Shown here: one piece after another, positions 1,707 to 32,372 of the stretch
Layout: every line of letters begins with the position of its first letter
Numbering within the stretch: position 1 is the first letter of the stretch
Virus record (IMG/VR): IMGVR_UViG_2703718827_000001
Span: 1-32,372 of that record
DNA: 32,372 nucleotides
Origin: a virus
Taxonomy: Duplodnaviria > Heunggongvirae > Uroviricota > Caudoviricetes
Direction: 5' to 3' (one strand)
Notes under the pieces: generated by a model
What the model saw: only the letters and a program-made list of their open reading frames with translations
Told to the model about the DNA's origin: nothing
Database searches by the model: none
Made by a program: the position numbers and the translations under genes

Positions 1707-1715
1707 AATGATTTC

Positions 1716-2671: not shown

Positions 2672-2680
2672 GAGAGCTCC

Positions 2681-5092
2681 TTATGTGATTCGTTGACTGG
2701 TGTTGAAGTTGGTAGCGAGAGCGTTGGACAATTTGCCCTTACCGCTGGCGACATCTCTGACGGCCATGGCGTAGCCCTGCTGCGCACCTCGCTTAACCGC
2801 GGCCTCAAGCATGGCTTGTTGCTGTGCAGAGTAATCACCGTTTAGATGGATAACCGGGCTGAAATTGAACGCCCCGCCACCACCGCCGATATCCCGGTTA
2901 CTGATGACGCGACCGTTATCGCCGGGGATCATGTACTGGCTACCATTGCTGGCTTTGAAAATCTCAGGCTTGCCGCCCTCGCCCACACGGTACATGGAGC
3001 TGGCAGATACCGGGCCGCCGTTTTCGCGCCCGCCGCCATATGAGATGCTCGCAACGTTCGACAGCAATGACGCTCCAGCAGAGGCGATGGCTGCATAGTT
3101 CGCAAGTTTTTGCGCTGGAGTCAGCGCTGTCGGATCAGCCATGGCCTGCATGATTGCGGTATTCAGGCTGAGGGTAGACTGGGCAATCGCAAACGCTTTA
3201 CTGGCTGCGAACATGACCTGGTACGCCGCGTTACTCTTACCAGCAGAGTCTGCAATTATCGACGCCAGGCTATCAAAGCCCTGGGACGCAGAGCCCAGAA
3301 TAGAAAGAACGGATGCTCTTTGCTGATCTGCCTCAGTCTGCGCTATTTGCATCCGTGCGTTTGACGCCTGCAGTTGGATGGCAGTTTTGGCGTCTTCGTA
3401 AAGCTGGGTATTTTGCTTATCCAGTTCCTGATATTTAGCCAGGGCCTCAAGCTTTTGTGTTTCCTGGAGATTGATTTGCGCCAGCGGATCCACTGATGCC
3501 CCAGTGATAGGGTTGACCGAGGTATTTCCGGCGGCTATCTCCTGTTTGGCATACTTCCGCCCCTGCTCAGCCTCTTTGCGCTTCTGAATAGAGATTGCTG
3601 CCTTTTCGTTTGCCTCACCAAGAGCCCTCGCTTCCGCTAGTTGCTGCTGAGTCGCGGCGCTACCAAGAGACTGCTCCGCACGAAGACCCGCCTCTTGAAT
3701 ACGGCGCTTTTCAATCGACTCTGTGGTCAGGTCTGATTGAGCGCGGAGATTAGCCAGTTTCTGAGCAATGGATTCAGCCTGCGATGCGGAAGTTTTGCCC
3801 TCTTTGTTGCTCTCTTTCCGCGCCTCAGTAACCCGATAGGTTTCTGCATATTCATCCTGAAGAGATTTGATGCGTTTCTGATCGGTGATACCAGCGTCTG
3901 TTGCATCATATTGAGCCTGCAGCCTGGCTCTGGCTTCACCTTCAAGCTTGGCTAGCGCCAGGCGGCGCTCTGAGTTTTTTATCAGCTTCGATGTAGCCGC
4001 ATCGTCTCCGGTCGTTTTAATGTTTATTGGCTTTGTATTAGAGGCCTCTTGAGAGGCTTGGGTCACGGCAGAAATATCCCCAACGAGAGCTGCAGCTTTG
4101 TTGCTTAGCCCTGCAAGCGCCTTGCTTTGAGCCTCCCAACCATCCAGTCCCAGCCAAGACCATGTCCTCGCCCTTCGCTCAAACATCTCTGCTGTGCTAT
4201 TGAGATCGGAAATTTGAGCTGCTGCTGAAGCTGTTTTCCCAGTCAGCCTGTCTATGGCTGTGGTGATGGAGTCAATTACAGCCACCATGGTTCTGCTCGC
4301 GCCCGTAGTCTGGTTAATTGAGTCAACCATTGACAGAAACGAATTGGTAAGAGCAGCATTGGCCTGAGATAAGGTGCGGGGCAATTTTGCGAACTCTGCA
4401 TTCACGATGCTGGTTTGCTTCTGAATTGCATTGAGTGCATCTTGAGCAGAAAGCTTCCCATCCAGCATCAACTGACGCAATTCACCAATACCAATGCCAA
4501 GCCCTGCCGCCATCTGCCTTGCCAACTCAGGCATTTGCTCAAGAATAGAGTTAAATTCTTCTGCTCTGACAACACCGGATGAAATAGACTGCCCGAATTG
4601 GCGCAGCGCATTAGCCATTTCCTCGGCAGATGTTCCTCCAATTCGACCAATTTTTTGAAGGGTGTCGGTAAGCTGCAATATTTGGCCATTAGTGGCACCA
4701 GTGCTCCGCAACGCAGTGCTTAACGTTTCCCACAGCTTGGCTGTATCCTGGAGAGATCCTCCTGTTGTTGAGCTTATATTCATCAGACTTTGCATGGTCT
4801 GAGATGCGACAGAAGCACTACCAGTTAGCCTTTCAACTCGAGCGTTAAGTTGGCTCATATTGTCAGCGGCTACAAGAAATGCCTTCCCCCATTCAACGAC
4901 AATTGAAGCAGCGATCGCGCCAGCTACTCTGCTTATGCTGGTCTGAAGCTCATCAAACTTGCTGGCAGCTTTTGATACTCCGCCATTCATCTTCTCAAGC
5001 CGTTCGTTGACTTTTCGCTGGGCCTCAATAAGGTTGGCTACATCCATCTGTACTTGATAGACGATATTTCCTACCTGTTCCTCACTGGCCAT
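2681..5092 (-). CDS. Tail tape measure protein
   Basis: About 800 aa, Ala/Gln/Leu-rich helical composition typical of tape measure proteins, downstream of the major tail protein. ORF extends to 5107, but the first ATG directly abuts a terminator T-tract; the second ATG (MASEEQ..., 5090..5092) has a GGAG Shine-Dalgarno 5 nt upstream. Confidence 0.85.
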   Translation of the reverse strand: MASEEQVGNIVYQVQMDVANLIEAQRKVNERLEKMNGGVSKAASKFDELQTSISRVAGAIAASIVVEWGKAFLVAADNMSQLNARVERLTGSASVASQTMQSLMNISSTTGGSLQDTAKLWETLSTALRSTGATNGQILQLTDTLQKIGRIGGTSAEEMANALRQFGQSISSGVVRAEEFNSILEQMPELARQMAAGLGIGIGELRQLMLDGKLSAQDALNAIQKQTSIVNAEFAKLPRTLSQANAALTNSFLSMVDSINQTTGASRTMVAVIDSITTAIDRLTGKTASAAAQISDLNSTAEMFERRARTWSWLGLDGWEAQSKALAGLSNKAAALVGDISAVTQASQEASNTKPINIKTTGDDAATSKLIKNSERRLALAKLEGEARARLQAQYDATDAGITDQKRIKSLQDEYAETYRVTEARKESNKEGKTSASQAESIAQKLANLRAQSDLTTESIEKRRIQEAGLRAEQSLGSAATQQQLAEARALGEANEKAAISIQKRKEAEQGRKYAKQEIAAGNTSVNPITGASVDPLAQINLQETQKLEALAKYQELDKQNTQLYEDAKTAIQLQASNARMQIAQTEADQQRASVLSILGSASQGFDSLASIIADSAGKSNAAYQVMFAASKAFAIAQSTLSLNTAIMQAMADPTALTPAQKLANYAAIASAGASLLSNVASISYGGGRENGGPVSASSMYRVGEGGKPEIFKASNGSQYMIPGDNGRVISNRDIGGGGGAFNFSPVIHLNGDYSAQQQAMLEAAVKRGAQQGYAMAVRDVASGKGKLSNALATNFNTSQRIT

Positions 5093-5146: not shown

Positions 5147-5533
5147 TCACTTGGTGCAGAACTTATAATCACGCCCACAGAGCGCTATGGATTTTTTTCC
5201 ATCCTCTGACCAGGCCTCTATGGACTGGACATAAACAGCATTCGTCTCTGCATCGATCTGGAACGAAACAAGCCCACCGCTGTAATCTAAAATCTTCCCA
5301 TTTCCCTTAATCGCCTTAAAGGTCGCCGACGCATTATAGGTGTTATCGCTTTTCCGCTCTGAAACCTTGGCCCTCCCCCCTTCAACAGAGAAACATCTTG
5401 CGCTCTTATCCCCACACAGAGCCATCGACATTTCTTTCTTCGCAAGCTGGAAGGCTTCATCTTCTGTGGGAGCTGGTTTACCACAACCAGCCAATAAGAG
5501 CCCTGCAATGGTGACGATTATTAAGCGTTTCAT
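5147..5533 (-). CDS. Lipoprotein (moron); candidate superinfection-exclusion lipoprotein
   Basis: 128 aa; N-terminal signal peptide with lipobox LLAGC; AAGGA Shine-Dalgarno 3-4 nt upstream; followed by its own terminator; region looks AT-richer than flanking tail genes. Confidence 0.7.
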   Translation of the reverse strand: MKRLIIVTIAGLLLAGCGKPAPTEDEAFQLAKKEMSMALCGDKSARCFSVEGGRAKVSERKSDNTYNASATFKAIKGNGKILDYSGGLVSFQIDAETNAVYVQSIEAWSEDGKKSIALCGRDYKFCTK

Positions 5534-5895
5534 ATCCTTATTCCCATTGGTAAAAGTGGAAACATCCTACCCAGGAATAGCACAGGCGCAACGGCAAACG
5601 CTGATTTATTGATCTCAATCGACCGGAAACGGGAAACCTGATCTTTTATCAGGATGTTCGACAATGGGGGTTCCAGGGTAGGTTATTTCATCTTCTCTGC
5701 GACCAAAGCAGTTAAGAAGTAAGCACTCGACATTCTTAGTGTTGATCCACAGGAAGAGGAAAATGAGCGACCAAAACCAAAAACAGAACACCAATCAACC
5801 TTCGCAGCAATCTACCACCCAACCGACGCCGGGGGACAAACCGAGAACCGACTTCTCGCTTGACCGCCGATTTGTTGGGAATTCTGCCGATAAAA

Positions 5896-6468
5896 TCAGA
5901 AAAAAAGATAGCCCACAGTAGTAATAGCTAACGCGCAAATCGGAGTGAGGATTGTTGCGATCCTCGCTCTGTCTAACCTGGTCCTGATTCGCTCATTCAC
6001 TTCACACAACTCTTCAGCTGTATTGTGCAAATTGGCTAACCTGATACGCCTGATTACTGATACCGGGTTGCGGTCAGCAGTAAACCCCCTACTTGCCAGT
6101 TCTTCGTAATGCTCATGGTCCAGCGATTTATAAAGTTTAGTATAGAGATCTGCCGGCGCTGAGTTAAGCAAAGCGCGAACCTGAACTGACAGGACGCCAG
6201 TAACCAAATAAATAGCGCACGCTGCCCAATAGAGCATGAACACACCAATACCTAGCGACATAAAAAAAGGTTGGTTATTTTGCGTCAGCAGTAAAAACGA
6301 TGAACCAATTCCGACAATAAGAATCCCAAGCAATTTGTATCCGTTTTCTCTGTTAATTGTATTCGATTGCTCGATCTCTTTGATGCACTCCTCGCCCTGT
6401 CTCTCGAGAAATTCAACAAGCTTATCATCGGCACTTAGAAAATAATCGTAAGGGAGATTTGTCATCAT
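5896..6468 (-). CDS. Multi-pass membrane protein (moron), unknown function
   Basis: 190 aa; two adjacent hydrophobic helices (LLGILIVGIGSSFLLLT and FFMSLGIGVFMLYWAACAIYLVTGV) and a C-terminal hydrophobic segment; weak RBS; AT-rich. Confidence 0.55.
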   Translation of the reverse strand: MMTNLPYDYFLSADDKLVEFLERQGEECIKEIEQSNTINRENGYKLLGILIVGIGSSFLLLTQNNQPFFMSLGIGVFMLYWAACAIYLVTGVLSVQVRALLNSAPADLYTKLYKSLDHEHYEELASRGFTADRNPVSVIRRIRLANLHNTAEELCEVNERIRTRLDRARIATILTPICALAITTVGYLFF

Positions 6469-6525
6469 AAACCGCTTAACTTTATGGACTTAGATAAATT
6501 TTAACCGATTGTGGGCTTGCGTATA

Positions 6526-6549
6526 AAGGAAAAGCCCACCTGAGTGGGC
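6526..6549 (-). terminator. Rho-independent terminator downstream of the KilA-N gene
   Basis: Minus-strand hairpin GCCCAC-TCAG-GTGGGC followed by TTTTCCTTTAT, about 10 nt after the KilA-N stop. Confidence 0.55.
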
Positions 6550-6559
6550 CTTGCCACCT

Positions 6560-7123
6560 TCACGCGATGCCTGGCAGGTACATCTGAACTTCATCGGCGA
6601 CGCGCTCCCTTGCTGCGTGCAACAGCTGCTTACGACCACCGACACCCCACCGGGCCATCTGGCTGGCGCATTGGCTGATCTGCCTGGTTTCAGTGTTGAT
6701 GATGTGGTCGATTTTGTTCAGGCGAGACATGGCACTGATACCGAGGCGCACTACGGTTCTGAACACCTCATACACTTCAATCTCAAATTCCGGCTTAATC
6801 CATGCAGCATAACGGATCGCCAACAGTTCAACACCCCAAACGCCTGGTTCATCCCCACCTTTAATAACATTAAGTGGTTGAATTTGTTCCAGAGTGCTTT
6901 TTTGCACTTTGGCTTTTAGTGCTTTTATGAAGCGCTTAACTTGAGCACTACGCAAAAACTGACTTGGGCGCTGCTGTTCTGTTGCCTCTCCGTTTGCCAC
7001 TGCGGCTGCATGAAGATCATTAAGGTTATAGCGCCCTTCGTCATCAACGCGAACGGAAACGCCGTTTACTGATACGGTTGGATATTTCATTGCGATTTGC
7101 CTATAGAAAGCAGAGCCTGTCAC
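6560..7123 (-). CDS. KilA-N domain protein (moron inside the tail operon)
   Basis: 187 aa; N-terminal region (VSVNGVSVRVDDEGRYNLNDLHAAA ... VIKGGDEPGVWGVELLAIRYAAWIKPEFE) matches the KilA-N/APSES-type DNA-binding domain pattern; possible alternative start at Met12. Confidence 0.7.
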   Translation of the reverse strand: MTGSAFYRQIAMKYPTVSVNGVSVRVDDEGRYNLNDLHAAAVANGEATEQQRPSQFLRSAQVKRFIKALKAKVQKSTLEQIQPLNVIKGGDEPGVWGVELLAIRYAAWIKPEFEIEVYEVFRTVVRLGISAMSRLNKIDHIINTETRQISQCASQMARWGVGGRKQLLHAARERVADEVQMYLPGIA

Positions 7124-7197
7124 ACAGAGAAGCCGCCTCCTAGAGAGGTCGCCACCTATAACGGCAACTCTCAGGCTCGCTTTCTGTAGGCTCTAGG

Positions 7198-7203
7198 ATT
7201 ATA
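7198..7203 (-). promoter_or_regulatory. Candidate sigma70 -10 element (TATAAT) upstream of the KilA-N gene
   Basis: Perfect TATAAT on the minus strand with a preceding TG; no convincing -35 hexamer found. Confidence 0.3.
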
Positions 7204-7242
7204 CAATGCGCGTGTGAAGCGCGGTTGATTTACTGCGGGTAC

Positions 7243-7269
7243 AAAAAAGCCCCGGACAATGCCGAGGCT
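7243..7269 (-). terminator. Candidate intrinsic terminator between the chaperone-position gene and the KilA-N moron
   Basis: Minus-strand 8 bp stem with one mismatch (AGCCTCGG/CCGGGGCT) followed by TTTTTTGT. Confidence 0.45.
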
Positions 7270-7285
7270 TGATTATTTGGGTGGG

Positions 7286-7975
7286 CTACTTCTGCTTAGC
7301 CTGCCGCCGTTTGCGTCGCGCAAAGTAGTCATCTGCCGCACTATCGTACTCTTCCCTGGTGTACCCCTTCTGTTCAGGGTATTTAGCGACCAGCATCATC
7401 TGAAACTCTGTCATCGTCAGCTGTCCAGCTTCTTCTTTGCTGATGTTGAAGTGGTTGCGCGCAGCAATGATGTAATCAGATGCCCTGAATTCATTGGTTG
7501 GTTCGTTCGATTCGTGGCGCTGTAGCTTGCGTAACTTGGCTTGGCCGATAATGCCGTGCATCATCAGGCTTTGGGCGATGATGACCATTTCCTGGGGCGG
7601 CATAATACCCCGCCGCCACATAAAGCCGCGCTTCCGGCTTTTACCTGGCTTCATCCAGCCGATCAGATCTCCCACTTCATCCTCGCAGCATGCGGACAAA
7701 ACCGTATGCGCAGCCATGATAGCCTTACGGCTCAGTATTCCGCTCTGTATGTAGCGAATGACACATTCTGGCAGGCGGTCATATTCTGATTGGATGTAGG
7801 ATTTGGACGCCTTCTGGATGAGAGTAGTCACCTCATCATTACAGAGATCGTAAAACGTCTGAACAATTTCCACTGGCTCGCCAATGCTGGACATCGCGAA
7901 TAGTGACGGACGAAAAAAATAGTCCTTATCACCGACACTAATAAGGCATTCTCCAAACTCTTTAACTGGTGTCAT
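7286..7975 (-). CDS. Hypothetical tail-module protein in the tail assembly chaperone position
   Basis: 229 aa; lies directly downstream of the major tail protein, where G/GT-type chaperones normally sit; basic C-terminus; no slippery-site frameshift seen. Confidence 0.45.
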   Translation of the reverse strand: MTPVKEFGECLISVGDKDYFFRPSLFAMSSIGEPVEIVQTFYDLCNDEVTTLIQKASKSYIQSEYDRLPECVIRYIQSGILSRKAIMAAHTVLSACCEDEVGDLIGWMKPGKSRKRGFMWRRGIMPPQEMVIIAQSLMMHGIIGQAKLRKLQRHESNEPTNEFRASDYIIAARNHFNISKEEAGQLTMTEFQMMLVAKYPEQKGYTREEYDSAADDYFARRKRRQAKQK

Positions 7976-12320: not shown

Positions 12321-12755
12321 TTATTTGAACACAACGCGAATCAGATCGCCCGCCACCGCAGTGACTGCTTTATCTTCTTCGACATAAGCGAATACGGCGG
12401 CATCATCTACAACCGCAGTGATCTGACCGTTGGCTACTGCAACCGGCTGGCCTTTGGTGTAAGTGCCCGCTGCTGCTCGCACATTTAGGAACATGCCAGG
12501 CAGCGGATGAATACCAACAACCAATTCATTGGCTGGGATTGCGTCATCAACACTCAGGCAGCGCAGGTAGTCTTTGTTTGCCACATACTTGATGGCGGAT
12601 TCTGCCCCGACCACAGAGGCCGTGAACTTGTCAGCAGTACTGAAGAAGCCAACAGTACCAGGCAGAGTCGATGCAGCCGCCCCGCCTTCGCGGTTAAGCA
12701 GCGGATTAGGGAACACGCCGCCGGCGTGGATAATATGCTTTCCGTCTTTAGCCAT
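12321..12755 (-). CDS. Head decoration / cement-like protein (possibly DUF2190-like)
   Basis: 144 aa Gly/Ala/Val-rich beta-type protein between scaffold and capsid genes. Confidence 0.4.
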   Translation of the reverse strand: MAKDGKHIIHAGGVFPNPLLNREGGAAASTLPGTVGFFSTADKFTASVVGAESAIKYVANKDYLRCLSVDDAIPANELVVGIHPLPGMFLNVRAAAGTYTKGQPVAVANGQITAVVDDAAVFAYVEEDKAVTAVAGDLIRVVFK

Positions 12756-12758
12756 TTT

Positions 12759-14165
12759 TTACTCCGGCATTTCGCTGACTGATTGGGTGTTGGTTGCCTG
12801 ATGGCGGAATGCACCGTTCAGGCCGAAAGATGTCTGGCACTTGGCGTACATAGCGTCGAGCGCCTTACCGTCCAGATCCGCGACTTCGTCGTCGCTCATG
12901 TTCATCGCCAGCTTCACAGCCGCGCGCTTTTCGCCTTTCTCTTTATCGGCGTTAGCGCTCAGGCTGTTGAAAACGACGTCCACGCGATCGGCGAGTTTCT
13001 GCGCCCACGCTGGCATCTCTTCGTTATTGGCGGCCTGCTCTTTTTTCTTGGGCTTGCCGGTTTCCGGGTCGATTTCTTCATCGCCTTTTTTCTTGGCGAT
13101 GGCTTCTTCGGCCTTCATCTGGTTGTATGCGTCCATCAGCTCGGCGTCGGACTTGCCTTCAGTCGGCTTACCAGCGGCTTGCAGCGCATTGATAATCAGT
13201 TCTTTCATCGGATCGTTCTCTCCGTTAGTTTTAATCTCGTACTCAGTTGGTTTGCGCACGACTTCTACAGGTTCGCCGACGAGCGATACTGCCCCGTCAG
13301 AGATGAGGTACTTCTGTTTGAAGAGGGACCGGCCAGAATCGTTCTTCTTCTCTTCTTCGAAAATAAGATAGTCCGGGTAAATGCTGACGACATAGCGCCA
13401 AGAATCAGGAATGTTTGCGCGAATTGCTTCACGCAGCGATGCGGCGATCTCATCGAAGGACATCCCGCCGTCATTAGCGACAAAGAACTTTATTTTGTTC
13501 AGCCATCCGTCTTTACGGTTGTCGCTAACAATTGCGTCCTGAAGGTTACAGACCTCAATTTCAGTCTCATCACCTTCGGCATTAACGAAGATTCCCACGC
13601 CCTCATCCGGCGTACCGGCGCCGGGCTCATCAAGCAGCACCGCCACATGGTCAAACATCATGTTGGTGGCGATCTCGTTGTACTTCTTGCCCTTCGACTC
13701 GCCGTTAGCGGCAATGCCGGAATACAGCAGGCCCGTGGATATGTGGATAGGGTCGGAGTTGGTACCGGCCAGCATCTCATCCAGACGGTTAATCAGGCGC
13801 TTGCCCTTATCCCTCGACTCGGCGTACTGTCGGTCGACGTACATATCGCCGCTTACCTTGCCGTCTTTGTGGCTGACGTTCTGGAGCCAAGCGCCGACGT
13901 GGTAGTTGTTTACCGCCCTGACATCGCGCGCCGAAACATGCTTGCCGTCCACTTTAGGGTGGCCCAGCGGCATCGGGTTACGCTCAAGCGTGTTGTAGGC
14001 CTTTTCGATTTCTGCTGCCGGGTACAACTTCCGGTTCATCACGATATCGTCCACGACAGGCGTGATGCCGCGAACCACGATATGTGGCTTGCCGTCGATG
14101 GTTTCTGTGGTGATGTTTGAAGCGGAGTTGACGACGGTCAGCACGTTAACGCGGTTGCGTTTCAT
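12759..14165 (-). CDS. Prohead scaffolding / protease-like protein
   Basis: 468 aa; C-terminal half is highly charged and helical (KKKGDEEIDPETGKPKKKEQAANNEE...), as in scaffolding proteins; lies between the portal-associated gene and the capsid gene. Confidence 0.5.
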   Translation of the reverse strand: MKRNRVNVLTVVNSASNITTETIDGKPHIVVRGITPVVDDIVMNRKLYPAAEIEKAYNTLERNPMPLGHPKVDGKHVSARDVRAVNNYHVGAWLQNVSHKDGKVSGDMYVDRQYAESRDKGKRLINRLDEMLAGTNSDPIHISTGLLYSGIAANGESKGKKYNEIATNMMFDHVAVLLDEPGAGTPDEGVGIFVNAEGDETEIEVCNLQDAIVSDNRKDGWLNKIKFFVANDGGMSFDEIAASLREAIRANIPDSWRYVVSIYPDYLIFEEEKKNDSGRSLFKQKYLISDGAVSLVGEPVEVVRKPTEYEIKTNGENDPMKELIINALQAAGKPTEGKSDAELMDAYNQMKAEEAIAKKKGDEEIDPETGKPKKKEQAANNEEMPAWAQKLADRVDVVFNSLSANADKEKGEKRAAVKLAMNMSDDEVADLDGKALDAMYAKCQTSFGLNGAFRHQATNTQSVSEMPE

Positions 14166-14217
14166 GCTGGGTCCTCATTGGTGTTATTCTGGTAAAAATC
14201 TTAAAAGGAGTTAACAG

Positions 14218-14571
14218 ATGAAAAAAATTGCAATGGCTATCGGGGTTGGTGCGCTGATAATTTCTTTCGACTCAATGGCTGATTACTACGGTGGTAATGA
14301 TATTGCCAAATGGAGCGACTCCAGACTTAAAGCCAAGGCTGGAACCGCTGATAACATGGACTATGTTAACGTTGCAACTTTACGAGGCCTTGTTATTGGT
14401 GTTCATGATGCTTTCGAAGGGTCTTCAATCTGCTCGCCTCAGGGAGCAACAAATGGGCAAATAGTCGATACGGTTACTTTATACGTATCAAACCATCCGG
14501 AGAAGCGTACCGATAATGCATCTCTGTTGGCTTATGAGGCATTATCCAACGCCTACCCGTGTAAAAAATAG
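14218..14571 (+). CDS. Secreted small protein (moron) on the opposite strand inside the head module
   Basis: 117 aa; N-terminal signal peptide (MKKIAMAIGVGALIISFDSMA); strong AAAGGAG Shine-Dalgarno; two Cys residues; AT-rich; its stop abuts the stop of the convergent minus-strand gene with no gap. Confidence 0.6.
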   Translation: MKKIAMAIGVGALIISFDSMADYYGGNDIAKWSDSRLKAKAGTADNMDYVNVATLRGLVIGVHDAFEGSSICSPQGATNGQIVDTVTLYVSNHPEKRTDNASLLAYEALSNAYPCKK

Positions 14572-15564
14572 TTACTGATCTTTAACTGCATTCCACTGCT
14601 TACGCTCGTTCGCCAGCTTTTCCGCCAGCCCCTTGTTGAAGATGCTGCCGTCATCGTTGAGTAGCACCGGTATCTGGCTGCAATAGCAGTTGTACCGGTT
14701 GCCATTCTCGGCGTAGAAGTCCCGCACTTCTTCGGTGGTGTAGACCTTTCCGTGACGGCTAGCATGCCACAGGCGCGTGGTAGGCTTGAGAGCTGACAGC
14801 CACATCAGGCCGGTATTCAGCCCTAGCCGATCAGCAGCCCAGTCCGTTTCATTCCACTGCGCCTGACGCAGCGCGCCGACTTGCTCCGTTTGCGCGATGA
14901 CCTTGGCCTTAACCATGGACACATCAAGGCGCTTACTGACGATGCTTGCAGTCTCGACCGGGTTGATGCCACGCCCGATGGAATCAGCGATGACATTTGC
15001 CAGATCTGCGCGCGCGGTGTCGCTGATACCTTTCCAGTCGCTATAGGTGCTGATATAGGCGCTGGCTATCTGGTTCTGATACGCCGGACTCGACAGGAGT
15101 TGCTGCAGCGTCGTCTGGCCGGCATAGACTGGCGACTGAACCGACAGGTTGGTGAAGGCGCTGAGCGTGCCGCGGTCATATTCTGCAATGACGTAGTCCA
15201 TCGCCCATAGGTTCTGGCTGCCGCCTTCAAGAAGCTCATCATCAAGAATCGACTGCACCACCTGGAGCAGATCGGCCAATTCAGCAGCTGTCATGTCATA
15301 GACGAACTTACCGGCATTGACTTGATACAGCGAAGATTCTGCGCCCTCGTTGTTGCACATCATCCAGGACTGCTGTGCGTTCGCCTCACGTTGCTGCCCA
15401 GTCAGCCGCAGCTCAAACAGAGCCTTAAGCCTGCGCTTGATGTTCAGATACCGATCTTCGATATCGTTGAACATCCGACTGACCTGCCGCGATGATTGCG
15501 TCGGGTCAGCTTTATTACGCGGTACGATTGGCGTCCCGATTCTGGTTTGCGCTGTCATCATCAT
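14572..15564 (-). CDS. Head morphogenesis / minor capsid protein (SPP1 gp7 / Mu F-like position)
   Basis: 330 aa ORF directly downstream of the portal gene; may start at the internal Met (MFNDIEDRY..., about 15474) since the annotated start overlaps the portal gene by 50 nt. Confidence 0.5.
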   Translation of the reverse strand: MMMTAQTRIGTPIVPRNKADPTQSSRQVSRMFNDIEDRYLNIKRRLKALFELRLTGQQREANAQQSWMMCNNEGAESSLYQVNAGKFVYDMTAAELADLLQVVQSILDDELLEGGSQNLWAMDYVIAEYDRGTLSAFTNLSVQSPVYAGQTTLQQLLSSPAYQNQIASAYISTYSDWKGISDTARADLANVIADSIGRGINPVETASIVSKRLDVSMVKAKVIAQTEQVGALRQAQWNETDWAADRLGLNTGLMWLSALKPTTRLWHASRHGKVYTTEEVRDFYAENGNRYNCYCSQIPVLLNDDGSIFNKGLAEKLANERKQWNAVKDQ

Positions 15565-16972
15565 CTGTCAGCGGATCCTTATCGGTTTGCTTTACATCAG
15601 GGTTAGGTGGCTGCACGACCTTGCGAGGCTCAAGCTCACCAACTGCGCGGATTTCGTTTTCATCCACTGCCGGAGTGCCGTATGCCTGTTGGGTATCTTT
15701 CGCCACGACAGCCATTGCCTGCATGTTGGCAATCTTCTCTTTCTCACTCGGCGCGAGCAGATCAGACCATGCCAGCGTAACCTCTCCGGATGTAGGCGGG
15801 TCAATGACACCTACTGTCCAGAAGCGCTCAAGCACACTCTCAATAACCGTCGACTGGAATCCCCAGCGGCGGCCGTTACAGCGCTTCGCCCAGTCTGTTT
15901 TGTCCTCATCTGAGGCAAGGCGCCCCGTCTGCTGACCAAACAGTATGGTGAACGGGCACTGAATCGAAGATGCAAACTCGTTGGCAGCTACTGTCCAAGT
16001 CGGGGATGGATCGGCAGCTGCAACAGAAAGCACCGACGGCGTGCCGGCCTGCATTACCAGGGCAGAATCAGTGCCACGGTTCATCTTGGCGACTTTGTCG
16101 TTGAGCGCTTCGCCCAGGTCTTTGTAGCCAGCGTCTGTGGCTTGCTTTGACAGGTTCGCAATGTTGGTTTCTTTGTCGAACGCAATCCCGAGCTGGCGAC
16201 TGGCATTCTTCAGGAACCCTTCGGCACTACCACCCGATACCTTTTCAAGGTCGAGAAGTTTGTTGTACCCCGCGCGCAGGAAAGGCACGCCAGAGAGCAT
16301 GTTTTCGTCTTCCGAGCCTTCGCAGAGGATGATGATTCGCTCAGGGTGTACTGTAACGCCGCGTACCGGACCATACGTGCCATCATCGCCTACGGGCTGC
16401 TCGTTGAAGTTGTACGAAACTGGCTGGCCATAAGTTTCGGAAAGCGTGTCAGTATCGAAGTTGCCCGGCTTGATCTGCGATTCCCACGCGGGGATTAGCT
16501 TAACGATGGGTCCGTTACCGATATTCCTCAGAGATTTAACCTTCTCTCGGTCTACCGGCTCGTGCCATTCTCTGCCGTCCCGGAACTGAATGAGCAATGC
16601 CGAGTACCGGCCAACGAGATTACGGCGATCCGCATCCTTAATTTTCGTCCAGTGCTTCTTCAGTAGTTTTGTGATTGTCTTTTCCCAGTCCGTTGTCTCG
16701 GTTGACTCCTTTCCGTCGTCGCCGTCGATGATCGTCGGGTTATCAACCCAGCACGAATCAAGAAGCTTATGAACGGCGGCAAACGCCACCGCGTTGCGCT
16801 CATAGGCCCGGTAGTAGCGGTCGAACTCGAGACTATTTGGATAACCGAACTCATCCCACAACTTTGTGCGTTTGGTATTTCCCGGCTGGCCCGCGTACAG
16901 CATGCGCTGCCGCCCGATAGCATCAGCAAGGGCATTAACGAGGAACTGCTCCCCGGTGCTTAATTCACTCAC
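15515..16972 (-). CDS. Portal protein
   Basis: 485 aa ORF immediately downstream of the terminase large subunit; acidic C-terminal tail; size and position typical of portal proteins. Confidence 0.7.
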   Translation of the reverse strand: MSELSTGEQFLVNALADAIGRQRMLYAGQPGNTKRTKLWDEFGYPNSLEFDRYYRAYERNAVAFAAVHKLLDSCWVDNPTIIDGDDGKESTETTDWEKTITKLLKKHWTKIKDADRRNLVGRYSALLIQFRDGREWHEPVDREKVKSLRNIGNGPIVKLIPAWESQIKPGNFDTDTLSETYGQPVSYNFNEQPVGDDGTYGPVRGVTVHPERIIILCEGSEDENMLSGVPFLRAGYNKLLDLEKVSGGSAEGFLKNASRQLGIAFDKETNIANLSKQATDAGYKDLGEALNDKVAKMNRGTDSALVMQAGTPSVLSVAAADPSPTWTVAANEFASSIQCPFTILFGQQTGRLASDEDKTDWAKRCNGRRWGFQSTVIESVLERFWTVGVIDPPTSGEVTLAWSDLLAPSEKEKIANMQAMAVVAKDTQQAYGTPAVDENEIRAVGELEPRKVVQPPNPDVKQTDKDPLTDDDDSANQNRDANRTA

Positions 16973-18998: not shown

Positions 18999-19334
18999 AT
19001 GTCTACAGAATCACTTCTTGATGCGATGCTAAAACATGATCGTTTTCATAATCAAAATGCGATGGTTCCAGGAATAGCCCAAAGAGCAGTTGATAATGGG
19101 TACGACAGCCTAACCGCAAAGCAACAGGCTGTTTTAGACCCTTTCTTAACCGAGAAATGTGATGGAGTAACCAACCCTGGAGGACATCATAACGACTGCC
19201 AAGTCATCCTTGAGGGTGACGATCTCGAAAGTGCTATTGAAAATGAAATGTATTATGGAGGGCTGCTATGCCCTTCATGCGTCGACGAGAAGGAGCATTA
19301 CAAGGCTGAATGGGAAAGAATTCAGCGCGAGTAA
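18999..19334 (+). CDS. Cys-rich small protein (moron), divergent from terS
   Basis: Start at the ATG preceded by AAAAGGAG (strong Shine-Dalgarno); 111 aa with CDG...HHNDC...CPSC motifs suggesting metal binding; plus strand, opposite to the backbone. Confidence 0.5.
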   Translation: MSTESLLDAMLKHDRFHNQNAMVPGIAQRAVDNGYDSLTAKQQAVLDPFLTEKCDGVTNPGGHHNDCQVILEGDDLESAIENEMYYGGLLCPSCVDEKEHYKAEWERIQRE

Positions 19335-19672: not shown

Positions 19673-20254
19673 ATGAATCCTGTAATTTTTATGAAAATCT
19701 TCGGTGAGGTGGATATCTCAAAGTTTTTTATTTCCATTGACCAAAATGAAGATGAACTTGGCTCGGTTTTAAGAGTTCATCTTTTGTCTGAGCGGCTACT
19801 TGATGCATGGATAGCGGCCCATATAAATAAAGAAGATTTGTTTCAAAATTCACCGGGCGAGAAAATAAAGTTCAATCCGAGCTATGGGATGAAACTTGGA
19901 CTCGCAAAGAAGTTAGGAATGCACGCTGAGTTATGTTCTTGCCTGCAAACTATTAACAAAATAAGAAATAACTTTGCTCATCGCTATGATTGCGAACCCC
20001 TAACAGATAAAGACATGCAAGCGATGGAAAATGCACTCAAAGGCGCTCCTCTACCTGCGAAAGTCAGAGCCGTCAGTGAAATTGATTTCAAGATTATTGA
20101 TATCACTGGTAAGGAAATTAAAAGCTACCATTTCAATGATGAAGAAACGCCAAATCGAATCCGCCTGCTTATTATTTTCGCCAGCATAATGGCAAGAATC
20201 ATCACTGTGGTAGTGGATAAACTTAAGACAATTGACCCCTTAGTCTTCAAATAA
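19673..20254 (+). CDS. HEPN-motif protein (candidate abortive-infection / RNase-type defence moron)
   Basis: 193 aa; R-x4-H motif (IRNNFAHRYD, R98 to H103) in a predicted helical context, matching the HEPN Rx4-6H signature; AAGGA RBS; AT-rich; transcribed opposite to the flanking late genes. Confidence 0.55.
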   Translation: MNPVIFMKIFGEVDISKFFISIDQNEDELGSVLRVHLLSERLLDAWIAAHINKEDLFQNSPGEKIKFNPSYGMKLGLAKKLGMHAELCSCLQTINKIRNNFAHRYDCEPLTDKDMQAMENALKGAPLPAKVRAVSEIDFKIIDITGKEIKSYHFNDEETPNRIRLLIIFASIMARIITVVVDKLKTIDPLVFK

Positions 20255-22053: not shown

Positions 22054-22115
22054 AAGATGAGGGTCTTACTTGAGCCGTAGCTCTTATGGTCCCAGGTAGG
22101 GGTATTCCAGATACG

Positions 22116-22150
22116 AAAAAGCCCAAGGCGTTAACCTCGGGCTCTTTTGT
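22116..22150. terminator. Bidirectional intrinsic terminator (tR'-like) between the Q-position gene and the lysis genes
   Basis: 9 bp stem with one mismatch (AGCCCAAGG/CCTCGGGCT), 6 nt loop; followed by T-runs on both strands. Confidence 0.5.
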
Positions 22151-22212
22151 GTAATTCAGTCGACAACCAAAGCTATGGCGACGATATCAGATTTACGCTA
22201 AATGTATGCTAT

Positions 22213-22902
22213 TTAATTGACTTTTGCAACACCCTGCTGCGAAAAAGCTGCTTTTTGTTGTGATCGTGTTCTCACTGCTCGCAGTAAAGCATCACTATCA
22301 AGTCGCTCAAATATGGCACACATGGCATTCCAGTAGTCGGCGTAGTTATGGCTCCAGTTATCCGGTTTCACCCCGCATAGCTCAGCAAGTTCCTGCTTCT
22401 GGTATGTTTCCCGCCCGGCCAGCTCAGCTTTAACATCCTGCGCCGCCAGCCAGATTAACGCCTTCAGCCTGTCCATGGTCTTGCCGGCCACCTTCCGGGT
22501 TCCCAGTTGCTCCCTGAACTGGGCCCATGCCCACTGAGTGATCGCCACCTGGTACTCGAAGCGGATATTCTCGCTGTAGTTCCACAGTAGCCATGCCTTC
22601 TGATGGTCTTCCAGCGACAGGACAGCGCGGCGCCAGGATGCGGTCACGAACTCAACCGGCCCCACCAGTGCGATGGATGATCCCTTTGCGCGGGACTGGC
22701 TGCCGCTCATCGCCGGGCCGTCCCGGTTAACTTTACGGCCGGTGATCGGGTCGGTGATTTTCTTCCTCCCCCGGCTGCGCGCCGTCGCGGTGAATTGTGC
22801 GTTCTCAGCGAAAGCTACCAGTTGCCCTTTCGTCTCCCCACTCAAATCTGCAGTCGCCACAATGAGCTGCTGACGTACGTATTCCAGTTGCTGACTGTTC
22901 AT
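22213..22902 (-). CDS. Putative late-gene antiterminator (Q-position protein)
   Basis: 229 aa ORF located between the nin-like genes and the terminator-containing leader upstream of the lysis cassette; call is positional, family not confirmed. Confidence 0.4.
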   Translation of the reverse strand: MNSQQLEYVRQQLIVATADLSGETKGQLVAFAENAQFTATARSRGRKKITDPITGRKVNRDGPAMSGSQSRAKGSSIALVGPVEFVTASWRRAVLSLEDHQKAWLLWNYSENIRFEYQVAITQWAWAQFREQLGTRKVAGKTMDRLKALIWLAAQDVKAELAGRETYQKQELAELCGVKPDNWSHNYADYWNAMCAIFERLDSDALLRAVRTRSQQKAAFSQQGVAKVN

Positions 22903-23011
22903 GCGGCTTCCTTATGTGACTGGTTGGTTTTGGTCTGGCTGTGCTTTGCTACTGGCGGCAGGCTGGCACGCTTAACGCTTTCTGCCTGGTACCGGAGGAA
23001 ATCGGCGTGGT

Positions 23012-23653
23012 TCATGCTGACTCCTTCTGCTTTGGTCCGCGATATTCACCATACAGAGGTGTTCTTCCTCTTGGCCTGGTATGCCTGTGGGTTACCTTGG
23101 GAGAAAAAAGCGCATCCTCTACATTCATTCCATTTTTTAGTCGACGCTTAATGGATGTTTCTGATACTGAAACGCGAGGGTCCCTTGACCATTCTGTGGC
23201 GGTTTTCGTTTCGCCATTGAAAGTTATGGCTGTGCGTCCTTTTTTTGTGTGCTCAGGGATATGCACTCGAGATCGCATGACATTACACGCTCGGCAAAGC
23301 ACCCTAAGATTTGAGTCCGCATTGTTATCTACAACCTCATCAATGTGATCAATATGCGCGGTTTTCCATGCGACCTTCTTGCCGCATTTTTCGCATGGTG
23401 GAAGTGTTTCTCCATAGCGGTCGTAAACAACTTTTCGGTGCTCATAAACGCAACCATTCGCCATTGATAGTGGGTGATCAGGAATTTTGAGCATTTGATA
23501 TCCCTTCGCATTTTTATGCCTGAATTTCCCTTTACCGTTTTTTGTGAGTTCGTAGGTCCCGTAGCGCATCATTCGGAAGTAGTGCATTTGACAGATACCC
23601 TTTCCTGGGTAGTGTTTGCATTCACGCTCACAACCTTCAACTTTGCATTTCAT
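23012..23653 (-). CDS. HNH endonuclease with N-terminal zinc finger and C-terminal AP2-like DNA-binding region
   Basis: 213 aa; Cys cluster at the N-terminus; HNH core (HIDHIDEVVDNNADSNLRVLCRACN); C-terminal TAITFNGETKTATEWSRDPRVSVSETSIKRRLKNGM resembles AP2-type domains. Confidence 0.75.
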   Translation of the reverse strand: MKCKVEGCERECKHYPGKGICQMHYFRMMRYGTYELTKNGKGKFRHKNAKGYQMLKIPDHPLSMANGCVYEHRKVVYDRYGETLPPCEKCGKKVAWKTAHIDHIDEVVDNNADSNLRVLCRACNVMRSRVHIPEHTKKGRTAITFNGETKTATEWSRDPRVSVSETSIKRRLKNGMNVEDALFSPKVTHRHTRPRGRTPLYGEYRGPKQKESA

Positions 23654-24297
23654 GCTGCACTCTCCTGTAATTTTTGACGGCGCTTCATCAGTGCATTGGC
23701 CCTGCGGGAAAAAATTGCTTTCACGCGCTTCAGGTAGGTAACGTCAAACCGGCGTGGGGCATTGTCAGCTTCGAGCCGCTCTACGCGCTTAAGGCCAATG
23801 CGATCAACCAGGCGGATCCGGTACTCGACAGCATTACCGCTCAACTGCCGGTTACAGCGTGTGCAAGCGGAGTGGACGTTAAACACGTTGAATTTGAGGT
23901 GTGAGGCAGCGCCGCGTGAACGGTAATGGCTGGCATCAATGGCGCTGCCAGTCAGGTAATAGCTTTTGCCGATGAGTGGATTGCCGCAACTGACACATGG
24001 CTTACCTTCATCGCGGACCCGGATGTAGCGATTGAAAGCTGATTGAGCCTCTTTATCCCACTGGGATTTAGACTTGAGTGACTCGCGCTTGGCCTTGCGG
24101 CGTTTGCGACCGGCCTTCTCGGCTTCCTTCTGCTCTTTGATGCGCTTAGCCGCGGCTTTCACCTTCTCCTTTTCGCGCTCCTCCAGTGCGAGGATTGTGC
24201 CGTGCTCCGGGCAGCACCAGCGGATCCGGATGTCGTGGAATTTCGGCACGAAGTATTCACCGCATACTTTGCACTTACGGCGGGATGGCTTACGCAC
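23650..24297 (-). CDS. ninG: NinG / Rap-like recombination protein
   Basis: 215 aa; recognisable similarity to lambda NinG, including conserved Cys clusters and a Lys/Arg/Glu-rich linker; GTG start. Confidence 0.8.
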   Translation of the reverse strand: MRKPSRRKCKVCGEYFVPKFHDIRIRWCCPEHGTILALEEREKEKVKAAAKRIKEQKEAEKAGRKRRKAKRESLKSKSQWDKEAQSAFNRYIRVRDEGKPCVSCGNPLIGKSYYLTGSAIDASHYRSRGAASHLKFNVFNVHSACTRCNRQLSGNAVEYRIRLVDRIGLKRVERLEADNAPRRFDVTYLKRVKAIFSRRANALMKRRQKLQESAA

Positions 24298-24460
24298 GTT
24301 TCCTCCTCGCCGCGAGACGCAGCCATTTCTGATCTACCAGGCGGGCGGTGTAGCCTTTCATAGTCGGGATGTCGGAGGGCTTAATCGCGGGCTTGCGCTG
24401 GCGGCGCGCCGGAACGCGGAAGATTTCGTTTGTGATGACGCGGGAAAGTGGAGTAGACAT
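24290..24460 (-). CDS. Small nin-region ORF (56 aa)
   Basis: Hand-translated ORF (MSTPLSRVITNEIFRVPARRQRKP...) with start overlapping the NinB stop and end overlapping the NinG start; basic composition; below the ORF-track cutoff. Confidence 0.3.
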   Translation of the reverse strand: MSTPLSRVITNEIFRVPARRQRKPAIKPSDIPTMKGYTARLVDQKWLRLAARRKRA

Positions 24461-24915
24461 CAGTCCTCCTGCTTATCGCGCAGCTGCTGGTACTCGCAGC
24501 TCTGCGGGATGGTCAGGTGGCAGCCGATATTCATCGCCCAGGCTTCGACTTTGCACAGGAATATGTACATCTCGCCGGTTTCCAGCTCCGACGTATGGCG
24601 GAGGGATTGTACGGTAGTGACCTCCCCGGACACGACGTCTACCCGGTCTTTGCTTTCGTAGCCGAGATAGGTGTGCTTCATCGCGTCTTTGACCCACTCA
24701 GGCGTAGCGAAGGTCTTACCGCGGGCGATGAGGTACTCGCTGATTTCCGTGTACCACATGTGGCTGAGCGCGTTCTGCGACAAGCTGCGCTTCTCGCGCC
24801 ACGGCTTAACCTGCAGGCGGAAGCATTGCCCGGCGTCCAGCAATGGCTGAATCTGCTGGCCGATGGCCGCGAAGTTGCCGCGATGGAGCTTGATGCCGTC
24901 TACTGGAAGAGTCAT
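24460..24915 (-). CDS. ninB: NinB / Orf-family recombination mediator
   Basis: 151 aa; motif REKRSLSQNALSHMWY parallels the conserved RSLDQNRKLWA region of lambda NinB. Confidence 0.65.
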   Translation of the reverse strand: MTLPVDGIKLHRGNFAAIGQQIQPLLDAGQCFRLQVKPWREKRSLSQNALSHMWYTEISEYLIARGKTFATPEWVKDAMKHTYLGYESKDRVDVVSGEVTTVQSLRHTSELETGEMYIFLCKVEAWAMNIGCHLTIPQSCEYQQLRDKQED

Positions 24916-24995
24916 ACGGCCTCCTTAACGGAAACCGCAGAATACAGAAAATCGCAGGTGCATTTCTGCATCTGTGACAAGGTGAGAAGTTCATA

Positions 24996-25223
24996 TTGTG
25001 GTCGCATTTAAGTCCCCTTAAATGCGCAGAAGTCTTACCGTCGGGCGTTCAACTCCGACGACGGTTAAATTATGGCTGGTTGATTATGGAAAATCAACAT
25101 AAGAGAAAGGCCTTCGAAGAGGCCATTGGTGTCTTGATGCTGGTTTATAAATCTCTACCCGCCGGGATGATTCACAAAATACATTTGCAATTAGTACTTC
25201 AGGGAAGGCTGGATTTGATCTAG
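24996..25223 (+). CDS. Small plus-strand ORF (about 45-75 aa), start uncertain
   Basis: ORF with possible internal start MENQHKRKAF...; preceded by a candidate promoter (TTGTGG-N16-TTAAAT) and palindromes; AT-rich; first gene of a plus-strand islet in the nin region. Confidence 0.25.
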   Translation: MWSHLSPLKCAEVLPSGVQLRRRLNYGWLIMENQHKRKAFEEAIGVLMLVYKSLPAGMIHKIHLQLVLQGRLDLI

Positions 25224-25283
25224 CTTGTTAAACAATCCGTAGATTATGATATCGGGATAAAAAACAGAAGGGATGGCCTGGTT

Positions 25284-25721
25284 ATGAATAATGGGGTGTT
25301 TACTACCGTCATTACTGGTGTTTCAGTGTTTGTGTTGGGTCAGATATTTGTAAAATCCATGCTTGATCCTTACATTTCATTCAAGGAACATTTGGGGATG
25401 GTTTCGGCCATTCTCCTGCGTGAGCAAAATAAAATCCTTAGCATCAATGCGAAAAGCGAAGTAATAAACGAAATCAAACAGGCGTCAGCTTTGCTGTTGT
25501 CAAAATCTAATGCCATACCCTTGTATGGAATGTTGGCTACTTTACGTCTCCTTCCTCGATACAAAGATGTCCTTAAGGCCTCGTGGAATCTGAATCTTAT
25601 TGCGTCTATTTTAGAAGAAGGAAGAAACACCACCCCCAAAGAAACCTATACAACTATTTCTAATTCTCTCAATGCGGTAGGCAGTAAGTTAGGGGTGGTT
25701 GTTACATACAGACCATCTTAG
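25284..25721 (+). CDS. Membrane-anchored protein (moron), unknown function
   Basis: 145 aa; single N-terminal transmembrane helix (VFTTVITGVSVFVLGQIFV) then a predicted helical soluble domain; plus strand, AT-rich. Confidence 0.55.
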   Translation: MNNGVFTTVITGVSVFVLGQIFVKSMLDPYISFKEHLGMVSAILLREQNKILSINAKSEVINEIKQASALLLSKSNAIPLYGMLATLRLLPRYKDVLKASWNLNLIASILEEGRNTTPKETYTTISNSLNAVGSKLGVVVTYRPS

Positions 25722-25722
25722 A

Positions 25723-26340
25723 TCAGCAAATAATATCTTCCTGCTGCGGCGCTGCCGGCAGCGGCATCCAGTGGGTTGGGCTCCATGATGCTCCTGGTAT
25801 AATCCAGCCATCTATATCTGCATCCGGATGCCCAGGGCAATTTGTTGCCCACTTCATTGCATAGCCGCCAGGAGCTGATTGCCATGGCGCAGCAACTATC
25901 ACACCTGTTGATGGGCTTGGCATCCGCTTACTGCAAGCCACCCAACCGTCTGTCAACTCATCACTATTACTTACAGGTTCGGCCTGAAGCATGGCGGCGC
26001 GATAGGCGTTCCAGCCGACAGCTTTTCCGTGTTCAAACGCGCTGTCAAAGTCATCATCAATTTCCATCGCAGCGGGCACAGATACCGGCGCTGGCGGGGC
26101 GGTGTAAAGCGGCGTTACTTCTCGCAGCGGGTCGGCATAAGCATTGCCACTATCGAAGCTGACGTTGTTTTTTGCCCCGCCTCCTGACAGCAACCACGCC
26201 ACCGGCTCCGCTTCGAGCGATGCCAGCGCTATACGCGCCATCTCTTTGACAACGTCACAGTTTTTATTTCCTTCGCAATCATCCATCAAAAGCCAATCGT
26301 CATTGATTATTTCTTTAATCTTATCCCGTGAAAGTTCCAT
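25723..26340 (-). CDS. DUF551-domain protein
   Basis: 205 aa; C-terminal Trp-rich region (DGWVACSKRMP...THWMPLP) typical of DUF551 proteins common in lambdoid early regions. Confidence 0.65.
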   Translation of the reverse strand: MELSRDKIKEIINDDWLLMDDCEGNKNCDVVKEMARIALASLEAEPVAWLLSGGGAKNNVSFDSGNAYADPLREVTPLYTAPPAPVSVPAAMEIDDDFDSAFEHGKAVGWNAYRAAMLQAEPVSNSDELTDGWVACSKRMPSPSTGVIVAAPWQSAPGGYAMKWATNCPGHPDADIDGWIIPGASWSPTHWMPLPAAPQQEDIIC

Positions 26341-30550: not shown

Positions 30551-30578
30551 TGCTTTCCCTTCGTGGTTAGGGCCGCCG

Positions 30579-31597: not shown

Positions 31598-31608
31598 GGA
31601 AGTTAAGC

Positions 31609-32353: not shown

Positions 32354-32372
32354 CCATCGAAACGAAACATCG

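Follow-up and report, generated by a model that had tools for sequence, protein, structure and literature searches.

A Rap1a/Tai4a-family gene in a polymorphic slot of a prophage head module, a candidate orphan immunity gene against type VI secretion amidases

The 32,372-nt viral sequence IMGVR_UViG_2703718827_000001 (Caudoviricetes), analyzed at its full length and referred to here as the window, carries a 117-codon gene on the opposite strand between two head genes. An initial annotation made from the nucleotide sequence had marked the interval 14166-14571, which consists of a 52-bp intergenic region plus the open reading frame (ORF), position 14166 being the first base past the start codon of the divergent gene. 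It had proposed an immunity-type inhibitor of an envelope-acting enzyme, a proposal that is supported by the membership of the protein, in family and in fold, among the Rap1a/Tai4a immunity proteins. Here we describe this gene, which runs from an ATG start to a TAG stop and is real and conserved, together with the slot that it occupies, and we weigh what its product may protect against.

The ORF has the features expected of an expressed, exported protein. As first annotated, it is preceded by a strong Shine-Dalgarno sequence (AAGGAG, 7 nt from the ATG) and begins with Sec-type leader features, namely MKK, a 12-residue hydrophobic core (Kyte-Doolittle 11-residue mean up to 2.55) and the junction S-M-A|D. 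The n-, h- and c-regions are all discernible, the latter with the S-x-A pattern at positions -3 and -1, and no lipobox was found in the leader. Among 13 homologues the junction A21|D22-Y23-Y24 is invariant and residues 2-20 vary, which is the usual pattern of a cleaved signal peptide. We predict a Sec leader cleaved by signal peptidase I and a periplasmic location for the 117-aa protein. The stop codon (TAG, 14569-14571) directly abuts that of the convergent gene 14572-15564 (-), a TAA that reads TTA on the + strand at 14572-14574, with zero spare bases. The AT-richness remarked on earlier is evident from a GC content of 0.441 and a third-position GC content (GC3) of 0.407, compared with 0.54-0.56 and 0.53-0.72 in the five to six flanking head genes, and the ORF falls within the lowest 8% of 354-bp windows across the whole window. 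The protein has two cysteines only, C72 and C115.

The gene is maintained by selection. Its homologues on seven viral contigs are 63-73% identical, and against six phage homologues the proportion of nonsynonymous differences (pN) is 0.17-0.23, compared with a saturated proportion of synonymous differences (pS) of 0.75-0.83, a sign of strong purifying selection. The rate of change in the leader is about double that in the mature part (pN 0.28-0.42 versus 0.14-0.21).

Searched against Pfam, the protein gave a single match, PF18602 'Rap1a immunity proteins' (E-value 1.5e-16; 61.1 bits versus a cutoff of 27.7), with residues 41-115 aligned on profile positions 11-90 of 90, and PF18602 is present in 18/18 close homologues. 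The identical protein of the Escherichia coli GN25 prophage is named 'Rap1a/Tai family immunity protein' in RefSeq (WP_061353767.1). The PHROGs match is phrog_3870, catalogued as 'unknown function'. A hit to subtilase cytotoxin B in NCBIfam was discarded as noise (E-value 0.14; 12 bits versus a cutoff of 219), and a role as anti-phage defense protein was dropped since PADLOC returned no match for the 117-aa protein.

An AlphaFold2 model based on 149 family representatives has a mean pLDDT of 92.3 and four helices in the mature part, with residues 1-20 poorly modeled (pLDDT 67-71). In a Foldseek search against the Protein Data Bank (PDB), the top seven matches are Tai4 of Agrobacterium tumefaciens (6IJE/6IJF) and Rap1a of Serratia marcescens (4BI8/3ZFI), all with probability 1.0, followed by a steep drop to E-values above 1. 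The lysozyme-inhibitor or periplasmic-binding fold that had been considered at first is thereby replaced by Rap1a/Tai4. Neither the Tai4 proteins of Enterobacter cloacae and Salmonella Typhimurium nor Rap1b, Rap2a or Rap2b were among the Foldseek matches, and because these Tai4-proper structures are absent, the fold is taken to be that of Rap1a and not the Tai4/Rap2b helical fold. By sequence and by predicted structure, the 117-aa protein is a member of the Rap1a/Tai4a family.

The cysteine pair agrees with this placement. Residues 26-116 align with A. tumefaciens Tai4 in phmmer (E-value 1e-4), and C72 and C115 are in register with the disulfide cysteines of both Rap1a and A. tumefaciens Tai4, spaced 43 residues apart versus 44 in the Rap1a pair; the possible disulfide of the initial annotation thus has a counterpart in proteins of known structure. 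Both cysteine columns are at least 90% conserved among the 149 representatives, and the nearly invariant columns are G26, G61, C72, Q81, P94, P114 and C115. At an E-value of ≤ 1e-3 the family counts 1389 representatives, all closer to the 117-aa protein than Rap1a or A. tumefaciens Tai4. Judged from these sequences, the branch around the 117-aa protein would be an uncharacterized one, largely borne by mobile elements as far as sampled.

The mechanism of the founding members is known. Rap proteins have Sec leaders, form periplasmic dimers and bind their cognate Ssp effectors with nanomolar affinity and high specificity in a 2:2 complex (PMC3533786). Ssp1 is a peptidoglycan DL-endopeptidase of the Tae4 family, a CHAP-like member of the NlpC/P60 superfamily; in the Ssp1-Rap1a complex, one enzyme sits on each side of a Rap1a dimer, with steric blockage of both active sites, and Gln84 of Rap1a bonds the catalytic His133 of Ssp1 (PMC3852654). 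Cys78, in the α2-α3 loop of Rap1a, is bonded to Cys122 near the C-terminus, and this disulfide is needed for folding (PMC3852654). Eight of the 12 Rap1a residues listed as Ssp1 contacts lie at positions 81-94, just past Cys78 (PMC3852654).

In the ungapped phmmer alignment, Rap1a 81-94 corresponds to residues 75-88 of the 117-aa protein. Within the phage clade, invariance is highest in this segment, where 9/14 positions are unchanged among the 13 homologues. It differs by allele class, reading QGATNGQIVDTVTL in the window, CASNQLNLNQISDVV in the E. coli XJ55 prophage, CPKGTVTRGQISDIV in Cronobacter phage ENT47670 and CINGRATVGQIEDVA in the metagenomic contig P0019. Constancy within a clade and difference between clades would be expected of a specificity-determining surface.

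The gene resides in a slot of the head module that is filled differently from phage to phage. Its flanks had been labeled head-morphogenesis and scaffold genes. The first label is confirmed, as the convergent neighbor encodes a Phage_Mu_F protein (PF04233, E-value 1e-9, residues 188-297; phrog_758, head morphogenesis, E-value 3.9e-136). The scaffold label is not substantiated; the divergent neighbor matches phrog_760 and, weakly, DUF2213, and this gene is kept beside the slot in all related loci. With the identity of the MuF protein to that of the window in parentheses, the slot holds window-type alleles of 63-73% identity in the seven viral contigs (67-74%), an allele only 42% identical in P0019 (85%), an allele 35% identical plus an extra 215-aa gene in XJ55 (88%), an unannotated allele 32% identical in ENT47670 (67%), an unrelated 171-aa gene (phrog_17948) in E. 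coli A14 (88%), an unannotated 146-aa membrane protein with cysteine pairs in E. coli GB089 and relatives (87%), and nothing of note in Enterobacter phage ENT1 (78%).

The slot is therefore syntenic and polymorphic, a hot spot of cassette exchange, and the allele class does not track backbone similarity across its relatives. The deviant GC content of the gene, its opposite strand and its presence or absence among close relatives are those of a moron. The gene is missing, or replaced by other cargo, in relatives whose MuF genes are 78-88% identical, and it is therefore dispensable for making phage; this speaks against the requirement for head assembly that the initial annotation had named as grounds for abandoning its proposal.

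Other occupants of the slot were noted in passing. The 171-aa protein of A14 (locus L003, 3018-3533 (-)) is of unknown function, and the 215-aa protein of XJ55 (L002, 3328-3975 (-)) has no family match. The 146-aa ORF of GB089 (L004, 2999-3439 (-)), shared with three similar genomes, has two hydrophobic segments and cysteine pairs resembling a zinc ribbon. The ENT47670 allele (L015, 2968-3294 (+)) corresponds to NC_019927.1 at approximately 34289-34615, where the record has no feature. In A14 (L003, 4510-6098) the portal gene is 5'-truncated by an InsQ/TnpB element and the prophage is probably defective; the portal remnant is named 'anti-CBASS protein Acb1 family protein' in RefSeq, and intact homologues are labeled DUF1073.

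When the upstream regions of ten loci are aligned on the start codon, a TAnnnT hexamer is found 32-36 nt upstream of the start in nine of them. The hexamer is common to four allele classes despite otherwise dissimilar intergenic sequences; it is preceded by TGn in the window and in loci L005, L008 and L009, and it is a perfect TATAAT in L006 and L010. This element is likely the promoter of the 117-aa gene. With the stop codon abutting the convergent gene, a terminator would not fit, and transcription would continue in antisense into the MuF gene, a silent gene in the lysogen. The features of the locus are collected in Table 1.

Table 1. Features of the slot and of a tail gene discussed in the text (positions in the window)
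Feature	Position	Strand	Description
Divergent upstream neighbor, left slot border	12759..14165	-	468-aa head-module protein; phrog_760, weak DUF2213
Candidate extended -10 element	14182..14190	+	TGtTATTCT; a -35 would overlap the divergent head gene at its start
Shine-Dalgarno sequence	14205..14210	+	AAGGAG, 7 nt before the ATG, read from the sequence
Rap1a/Tai4a-family (PF18602) gene	14218..14571	+	117 aa, TAG stop included
Signal-peptide coding part	14218..14280	+	Residues 1-21, MKKIAMAIGVGALIISFDSMA; predicted cleavage after A21
Mature domain	14281..14568	+	Residues 22-117; four-helix core 26-40, 46-66, 79-92, 101-112
Cys72 codon	14431..14433	+	Loop between helices 46-66 and 79-92
Likely enzyme-blocking surface	14440..14481	+	Residues 75-88, QGATNGQIVDTVTL; by alignment with Rap1a 81-94
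Cys115 codon	14560..14562	+	C-terminal P-C-K-K motif
Convergent downstream neighbor, right slot border	14572..15564	-	330-aa short MuF-type minor head/head-morphogenesis protein
Tail protein	1151-1579	-	142 aa, between DUF1833 and TipJ genes; NlpC/P60 fold, conserved Cys and His

The prophage belongs to a lineage of temperate siphoviruses of Enterobacteriaceae, mainly of the Enterobacter cloacae complex and also of E. coli and Cronobacter. Positions 12700-15600 (2.9 kb) are 100% identical to the GN25 prophage, to which the window is 99.6% identical over 1-22103; beyond (22104-32372) only patches of 81-99% identity remain, so that the early/regulatory region is, on alignment, mosaic, and the window probably stems from another strain or species than GN25. 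The exact protein was found on 42 contigs, mostly of Enterobacter hormaechei, and the XJ55 allele on approximately 493 contigs of Enterobacter, Klebsiella aerogenes and E. coli.

The window carries further genes of unusual composition. A low-GC island inside the tail module (5147-5533 (-), 5896-6468 (-) and 6560-7090 (-)) encodes a 128-aa protein whose lipoprotein signal has an LLLAGC lipobox, a 190-aa protein in which several segments are hydrophobic, and a protein with a KilA-N domain. Neither the 128-aa nor the 190-aa protein gave a Pfam or PADLOC match; these are further envelope-directed accessory genes, possibly serving exclusion. Two genes at 18999-19334 (+) and 19673-20254 (+), with GC contents of 0.44 and 0.38, lie on the strand opposite to the late operon, just past the small terminase gene; they likewise gave no Pfam or PADLOC match and are likely additional morons.

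On balance we consider it fairly probable that the gene is an orphan moron of Rap1a ('Tai4a') type, by which the lysogen neutralizes Ssp1/Tae4-type DL-endopeptidases injected by neighboring cells through their type VI secretion system (T6SS). Transcription in the lysogen would start at a small promoter of the gene's own, located within the 52-bp intergenic region, and would oppose the silent late operon. The 117-aa precursor would be exported by Sec and cut after Ala21. In the oxidizing periplasm, Cys72 would bond with Cys115 in the structural disulfide typical of the Rap1a fold, and the protein would dimerize. When the T6SS of a rival injects a γ-D-glutamyl-mDAP peptidoglycan endopeptidase of the Ssp1/Tae4 family, the dimer would bind the enzyme and, by homology with Rap1a, plug its Cys-His active site with the surface past Cys72, so that the wall of the lysogen, and with it the prophage, would survive. 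Different slot alleles would guard against different effector variants.

We favor this explanation because the family, fold, leader and cysteines match those of founders with a known mechanism, and because the contact surface is conserved within the clade and the slot is polymorphic. A further reason is that the hosts are mainly Enterobacter, in whose T6SS clusters Tae4-type loci are reported to be widespread (PMC13185608), and that Ralstonia prophages with T6SS toxin-immunity clusters are documented (PMC11481896).

Several observations weigh against it. The first group concerns the missing partner. According to English et al., homologues of Rap and of Ssp 'appear to always co-occur' (PMC3533786), and no cognate effector was found in the prophage or in the sampled family contexts. 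In GN25, over 18 kb to each side of the identical gene and where the window matches (1-22103), all annotated genes are phage genes (including tail, head, terminase, lysis, Q antiterminator and replication genes), with neither a Tae4/Ssp1 amidase effector nor a T6SS component among them; such neighbors are likewise absent in the seven viral contigs and other relatives, so the gene is an orphan. A Tae4-family neighbor was found in 0 of approximately 22 other family contexts sampled, in other phages, a satellite-like element, conjugative plasmids and chromosomal sites, and the family around the 117-aa protein may serve a purpose other than T6SS immunity. The second group concerns the gene itself. 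Its product is only 23-27% identical to the characterized proteins, and the widespread Tae4 enzymes of Enterobacter and Salmonella use the other (Tai4) immunity fold, specificity being described as fold-dependent (PMC3852654). A strict scan for sigma-70 promoter and terminator consensus over 13600-15200 found neither. The window-type allele is also rare, occurring in 1/5426 complete E. coli genomes and in 0 of 185,579 species-representative genomes in the scan for the phage clade.

The sampled contexts are diverse. Family members were found in a lambdoid prophage beside VRR_NUC, endonuclease and muramidase genes, in a phage with an antirepressor and a giant polyvalent protein (L016), in a satellite-like element with a resolvase, DUF5906 and an AlpA-like gene, in the early region of an aquatic phage, in a prophage lysis cassette, beside an integrase remnant, in an IS/DUF1493 island and on three conjugative or mobilizable plasmids. 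Nine distant loci from a second scan of species-representative genomes are chromosomal with housekeeping neighbors. A homologue of 34% identity was also observed in Bacillus phage vB_BspP_Dartukuta (L031, MW749009.1, 2926-3288 (+)). This phage has a gene annotated 'outer membrane lytic protein', and its antirepressor and giant-protein neighborhood resembles that of L016; these features look like those of a phage of a Gram-negative host, and the Bacillus label looks doubtful.

The sampled neighborhoods also bear on the alternatives. Of these, the one that survives best assumes another target, either a non-Tae4 toxin arriving by another route (bacteriocin, contact-dependent inhibition (CDI)/Rhs or type IV secretion system) or a host autolysin (MepS, for example), whose inhibition would let the phage tune the host cell wall. 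The size of the family (1389 representatives) and the lack of Tae4 neighbors among sampled members leave space for it, and so does a two-domain member that directly follows a 700-aa trypsin-like/Sel1 protein, from which the fold may partner other enzymes; two chromosomal members, moreover, adjoin peptidoglycan enzymes, namely a class A penicillin-binding protein (PBP) and a YkuD L,D-transpeptidase. However, all experimentally characterized members neutralize Tae4-family amidases (PMC3533786; PMC3852654; PDB 6IJF), the neighbor observations are few and may be chance, and direct evidence for any alternative target is nil. We regard another target as unlikely.

The neighbors concerned can be specified. 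In L020, the gene at 3587-4303 (+) encodes a tandem-Rap1a-domain protein of 238 aa and starts 3 bp past the trypsin-like/Sel1 gene (1481-3583 (+)); the two may form a toxin-immunity pair in which the Rap1a fold is coupled to a non-Tae4 enzyme. The genes for the peptidoglycan enzymes lie at 5323-7770 (-) in L027 and at 5658-6335 (+) in L029, possibly by chance.

A second alternative takes the protein for an entry-exclusion factor, that is, a periplasmic inhibitor of an NlpC/P60-CHAP DL-endopeptidase brought by other mobile elements or by the phage's own particles, which would block superinfection or spare lysogens lysis-from-without when siblings release phage. Its appeal lies in the enzyme class, as Tae4/Ssp1 enzymes are themselves CHAP-like members of the NlpC/P60 superfamily (PMC3852654), and in the setting, as the sampled family members belong nearly all to mobile elements, namely several unrelated phage backbones, a satellite-like element and conjugative plasmids, with none beside a T6SS effector. 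The prophage, too, encodes a tail protein of NlpC/P60 fold (1151-1579 (-)). This tail protein is nevertheless far commoner (327 clusters), close relatives, compared in the head genes that they share, lack the Rap1a gene, so that no coupling of the two is evident, its presence in the virion or arrival in the periplasm is an assumption, and the 117-aa protein has no PADLOC match. We hold entry exclusion by this gene to be distinctly improbable. Improbable to a slightly higher degree is the broader version, in which the whole lone-gene Rap1a-fold branch on phages, satellites and conjugative plasmids would be a mobile-element entry-exclusion device, plugging in the periplasm the endopeptidases with which incoming phages or released particles of the phage itself cross the peptidoglycan, and not T6SS immunity. 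If entry exclusion were nonetheless the function, the head-slot alleles would track different phage lysins.

The tail protein was also considered by itself. It matches phrog_329 'minor tail protein' and, below threshold, CHAP. The idea of a Tae4-like target was rejected for it, since its model matches generic NlpC/P60 enzymes and not Tae4/Ssp1, which leaves the idea with no specific support. In NCBI records, the homologues of the tail protein (327 clusters across prophages of Enterobacterales) very frequently bear the name 'nitrite transporter', which looks like a propagated misannotation.

An immunity protein for a MuF-type polymorphic toxin is suggested by the position of the gene immediately beyond the 3' end of the Phage_Mu_F gene and by described MuF toxins with downstream small ORFs (PMC5576092), but we give it hardly any credence and reject it on anatomy: the MuF protein is short (330 aa) with a domain ending at 297 and no C-terminal toxin extension, the gene is convergent on the opposite strand and not co-directional as in PMC5576092, it encodes a signal peptide although MuF toxins are proposed to act on cytosolic targets, and a peptidoglycan or amidase toxin domain goes unmentioned in PMC5576092. 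The gene might instead be an antisense ORF that arose by chance, or encode a component of the virion or its assembly, and not be an accessory gene expressed in the lysogen. This would suit the location inside the head-morphogenesis module and the missing consensus promoter and terminator, yet it is just as implausible given the Pfam family match, a pN far below pS, the confident predicted fold, a signal peptide incompatible with cytoplasmic head assembly, and a slot that is empty in ENT1 and holds unrelated genes in other close relatives.

Should the gene indeed be a moron against T6SS amidases, the host of a temperate phage lineage would gain resistance to a contact-dependent weapon, which sets this benefit of lysogeny apart from toxins, serum resistance and superinfection immunity. 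The slot, with its alleles of 32-42% identity, would then record an arms race between phage antidotes and Tae4/Ssp1-type effectors in Enterobacter and relatives. There is also an annotation gap, in that the family is 'unknown' in PHROGs, the gene has no annotation in some phage records and the sampled family members are mostly orphans. The family assignment itself is already in RefSeq; what we did not find described in the literature searched is the phage setting, with a lone orphan in a fixed polymorphic slot of the head module and relatives in several other phage backbones.

In the literature searched, whose coverage is incomplete so that an earlier description may exist elsewhere, we found no description of a phage-borne Rap1a/Tai4a gene and no paper on prophage-conferred T6SS immunity of this kind; the paper on phage DSL-LC04 is silent on the 'Tai4' annotated in its record. 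Among the closest known systems is Rap1a of S. marcescens Db10 (SMA2260; PDB 3ZFI, complex 4BI8), founder of the 'Tai4a' fold and of PF18602, the Pfam family shared with the 117-aa protein. The fold was named 'Tai4a' by Srikannathasan et al., who describe it as structurally unrelated to Tai4 (PMC3852654). Like Rap1a, the 117-aa protein is of similar size, has an N-terminal Sec leader and has cysteines at matching positions, one in the loop after a long helix and one in a C-terminal P-C-K motif. The two differ in that the Rap1a gene adjoins that of its effector Ssp1 in a T6SS cluster, whereas the window gene lies in a prophage head module. Overall identity is low, and the Ssp1-contact-equivalent segment reads QGATNGQIVDTVTL in the window and SQLQTVTLQEFVFE in Rap1a; because these residues differ, Ssp1 is unlikely to be the exact target.

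A. tumefaciens Tai4 (PDB 6IJE; Tae4 complex 6IJF), with an identity of 23-25%, is part of a chromosomal effector-immunity pair in an alphaproteobacterium. Tai4, Rap2a, Rap1b and Rap2b, including the Tai4 proteins of E. cloacae and S. Typhimurium, do the same job in outline, each being a small all-helical protein that is disulfide-bonded, resides in the periplasm as a dimer and blocks a Tae4 amidase (PMC3695027, PMC3852654). The NCBI product name 'Rap1a/Tai family' lumps both immunity families.

The proposed role fits the established idea of orphan immunity genes on mobile elements. Bacteroidales have acquired interbacterial defense islands, and Vibrio cholerae has orphan immunity arrays. The phiRSY1-like prophages of Ralstonia are likewise mobile elements that carry protection against interbacterial toxins, to the benefit of host and element (PMC11481896). 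In Bacteroidales, Vibrio and Ralstonia, the protective genes form arrays, borne by conjugative elements or chromosomes, or else complete vgrG-toxin-immunity modules. Unlike these, the window gene is a lone, toxin-less immunity gene in a fixed polymorphic slot between two head genes.

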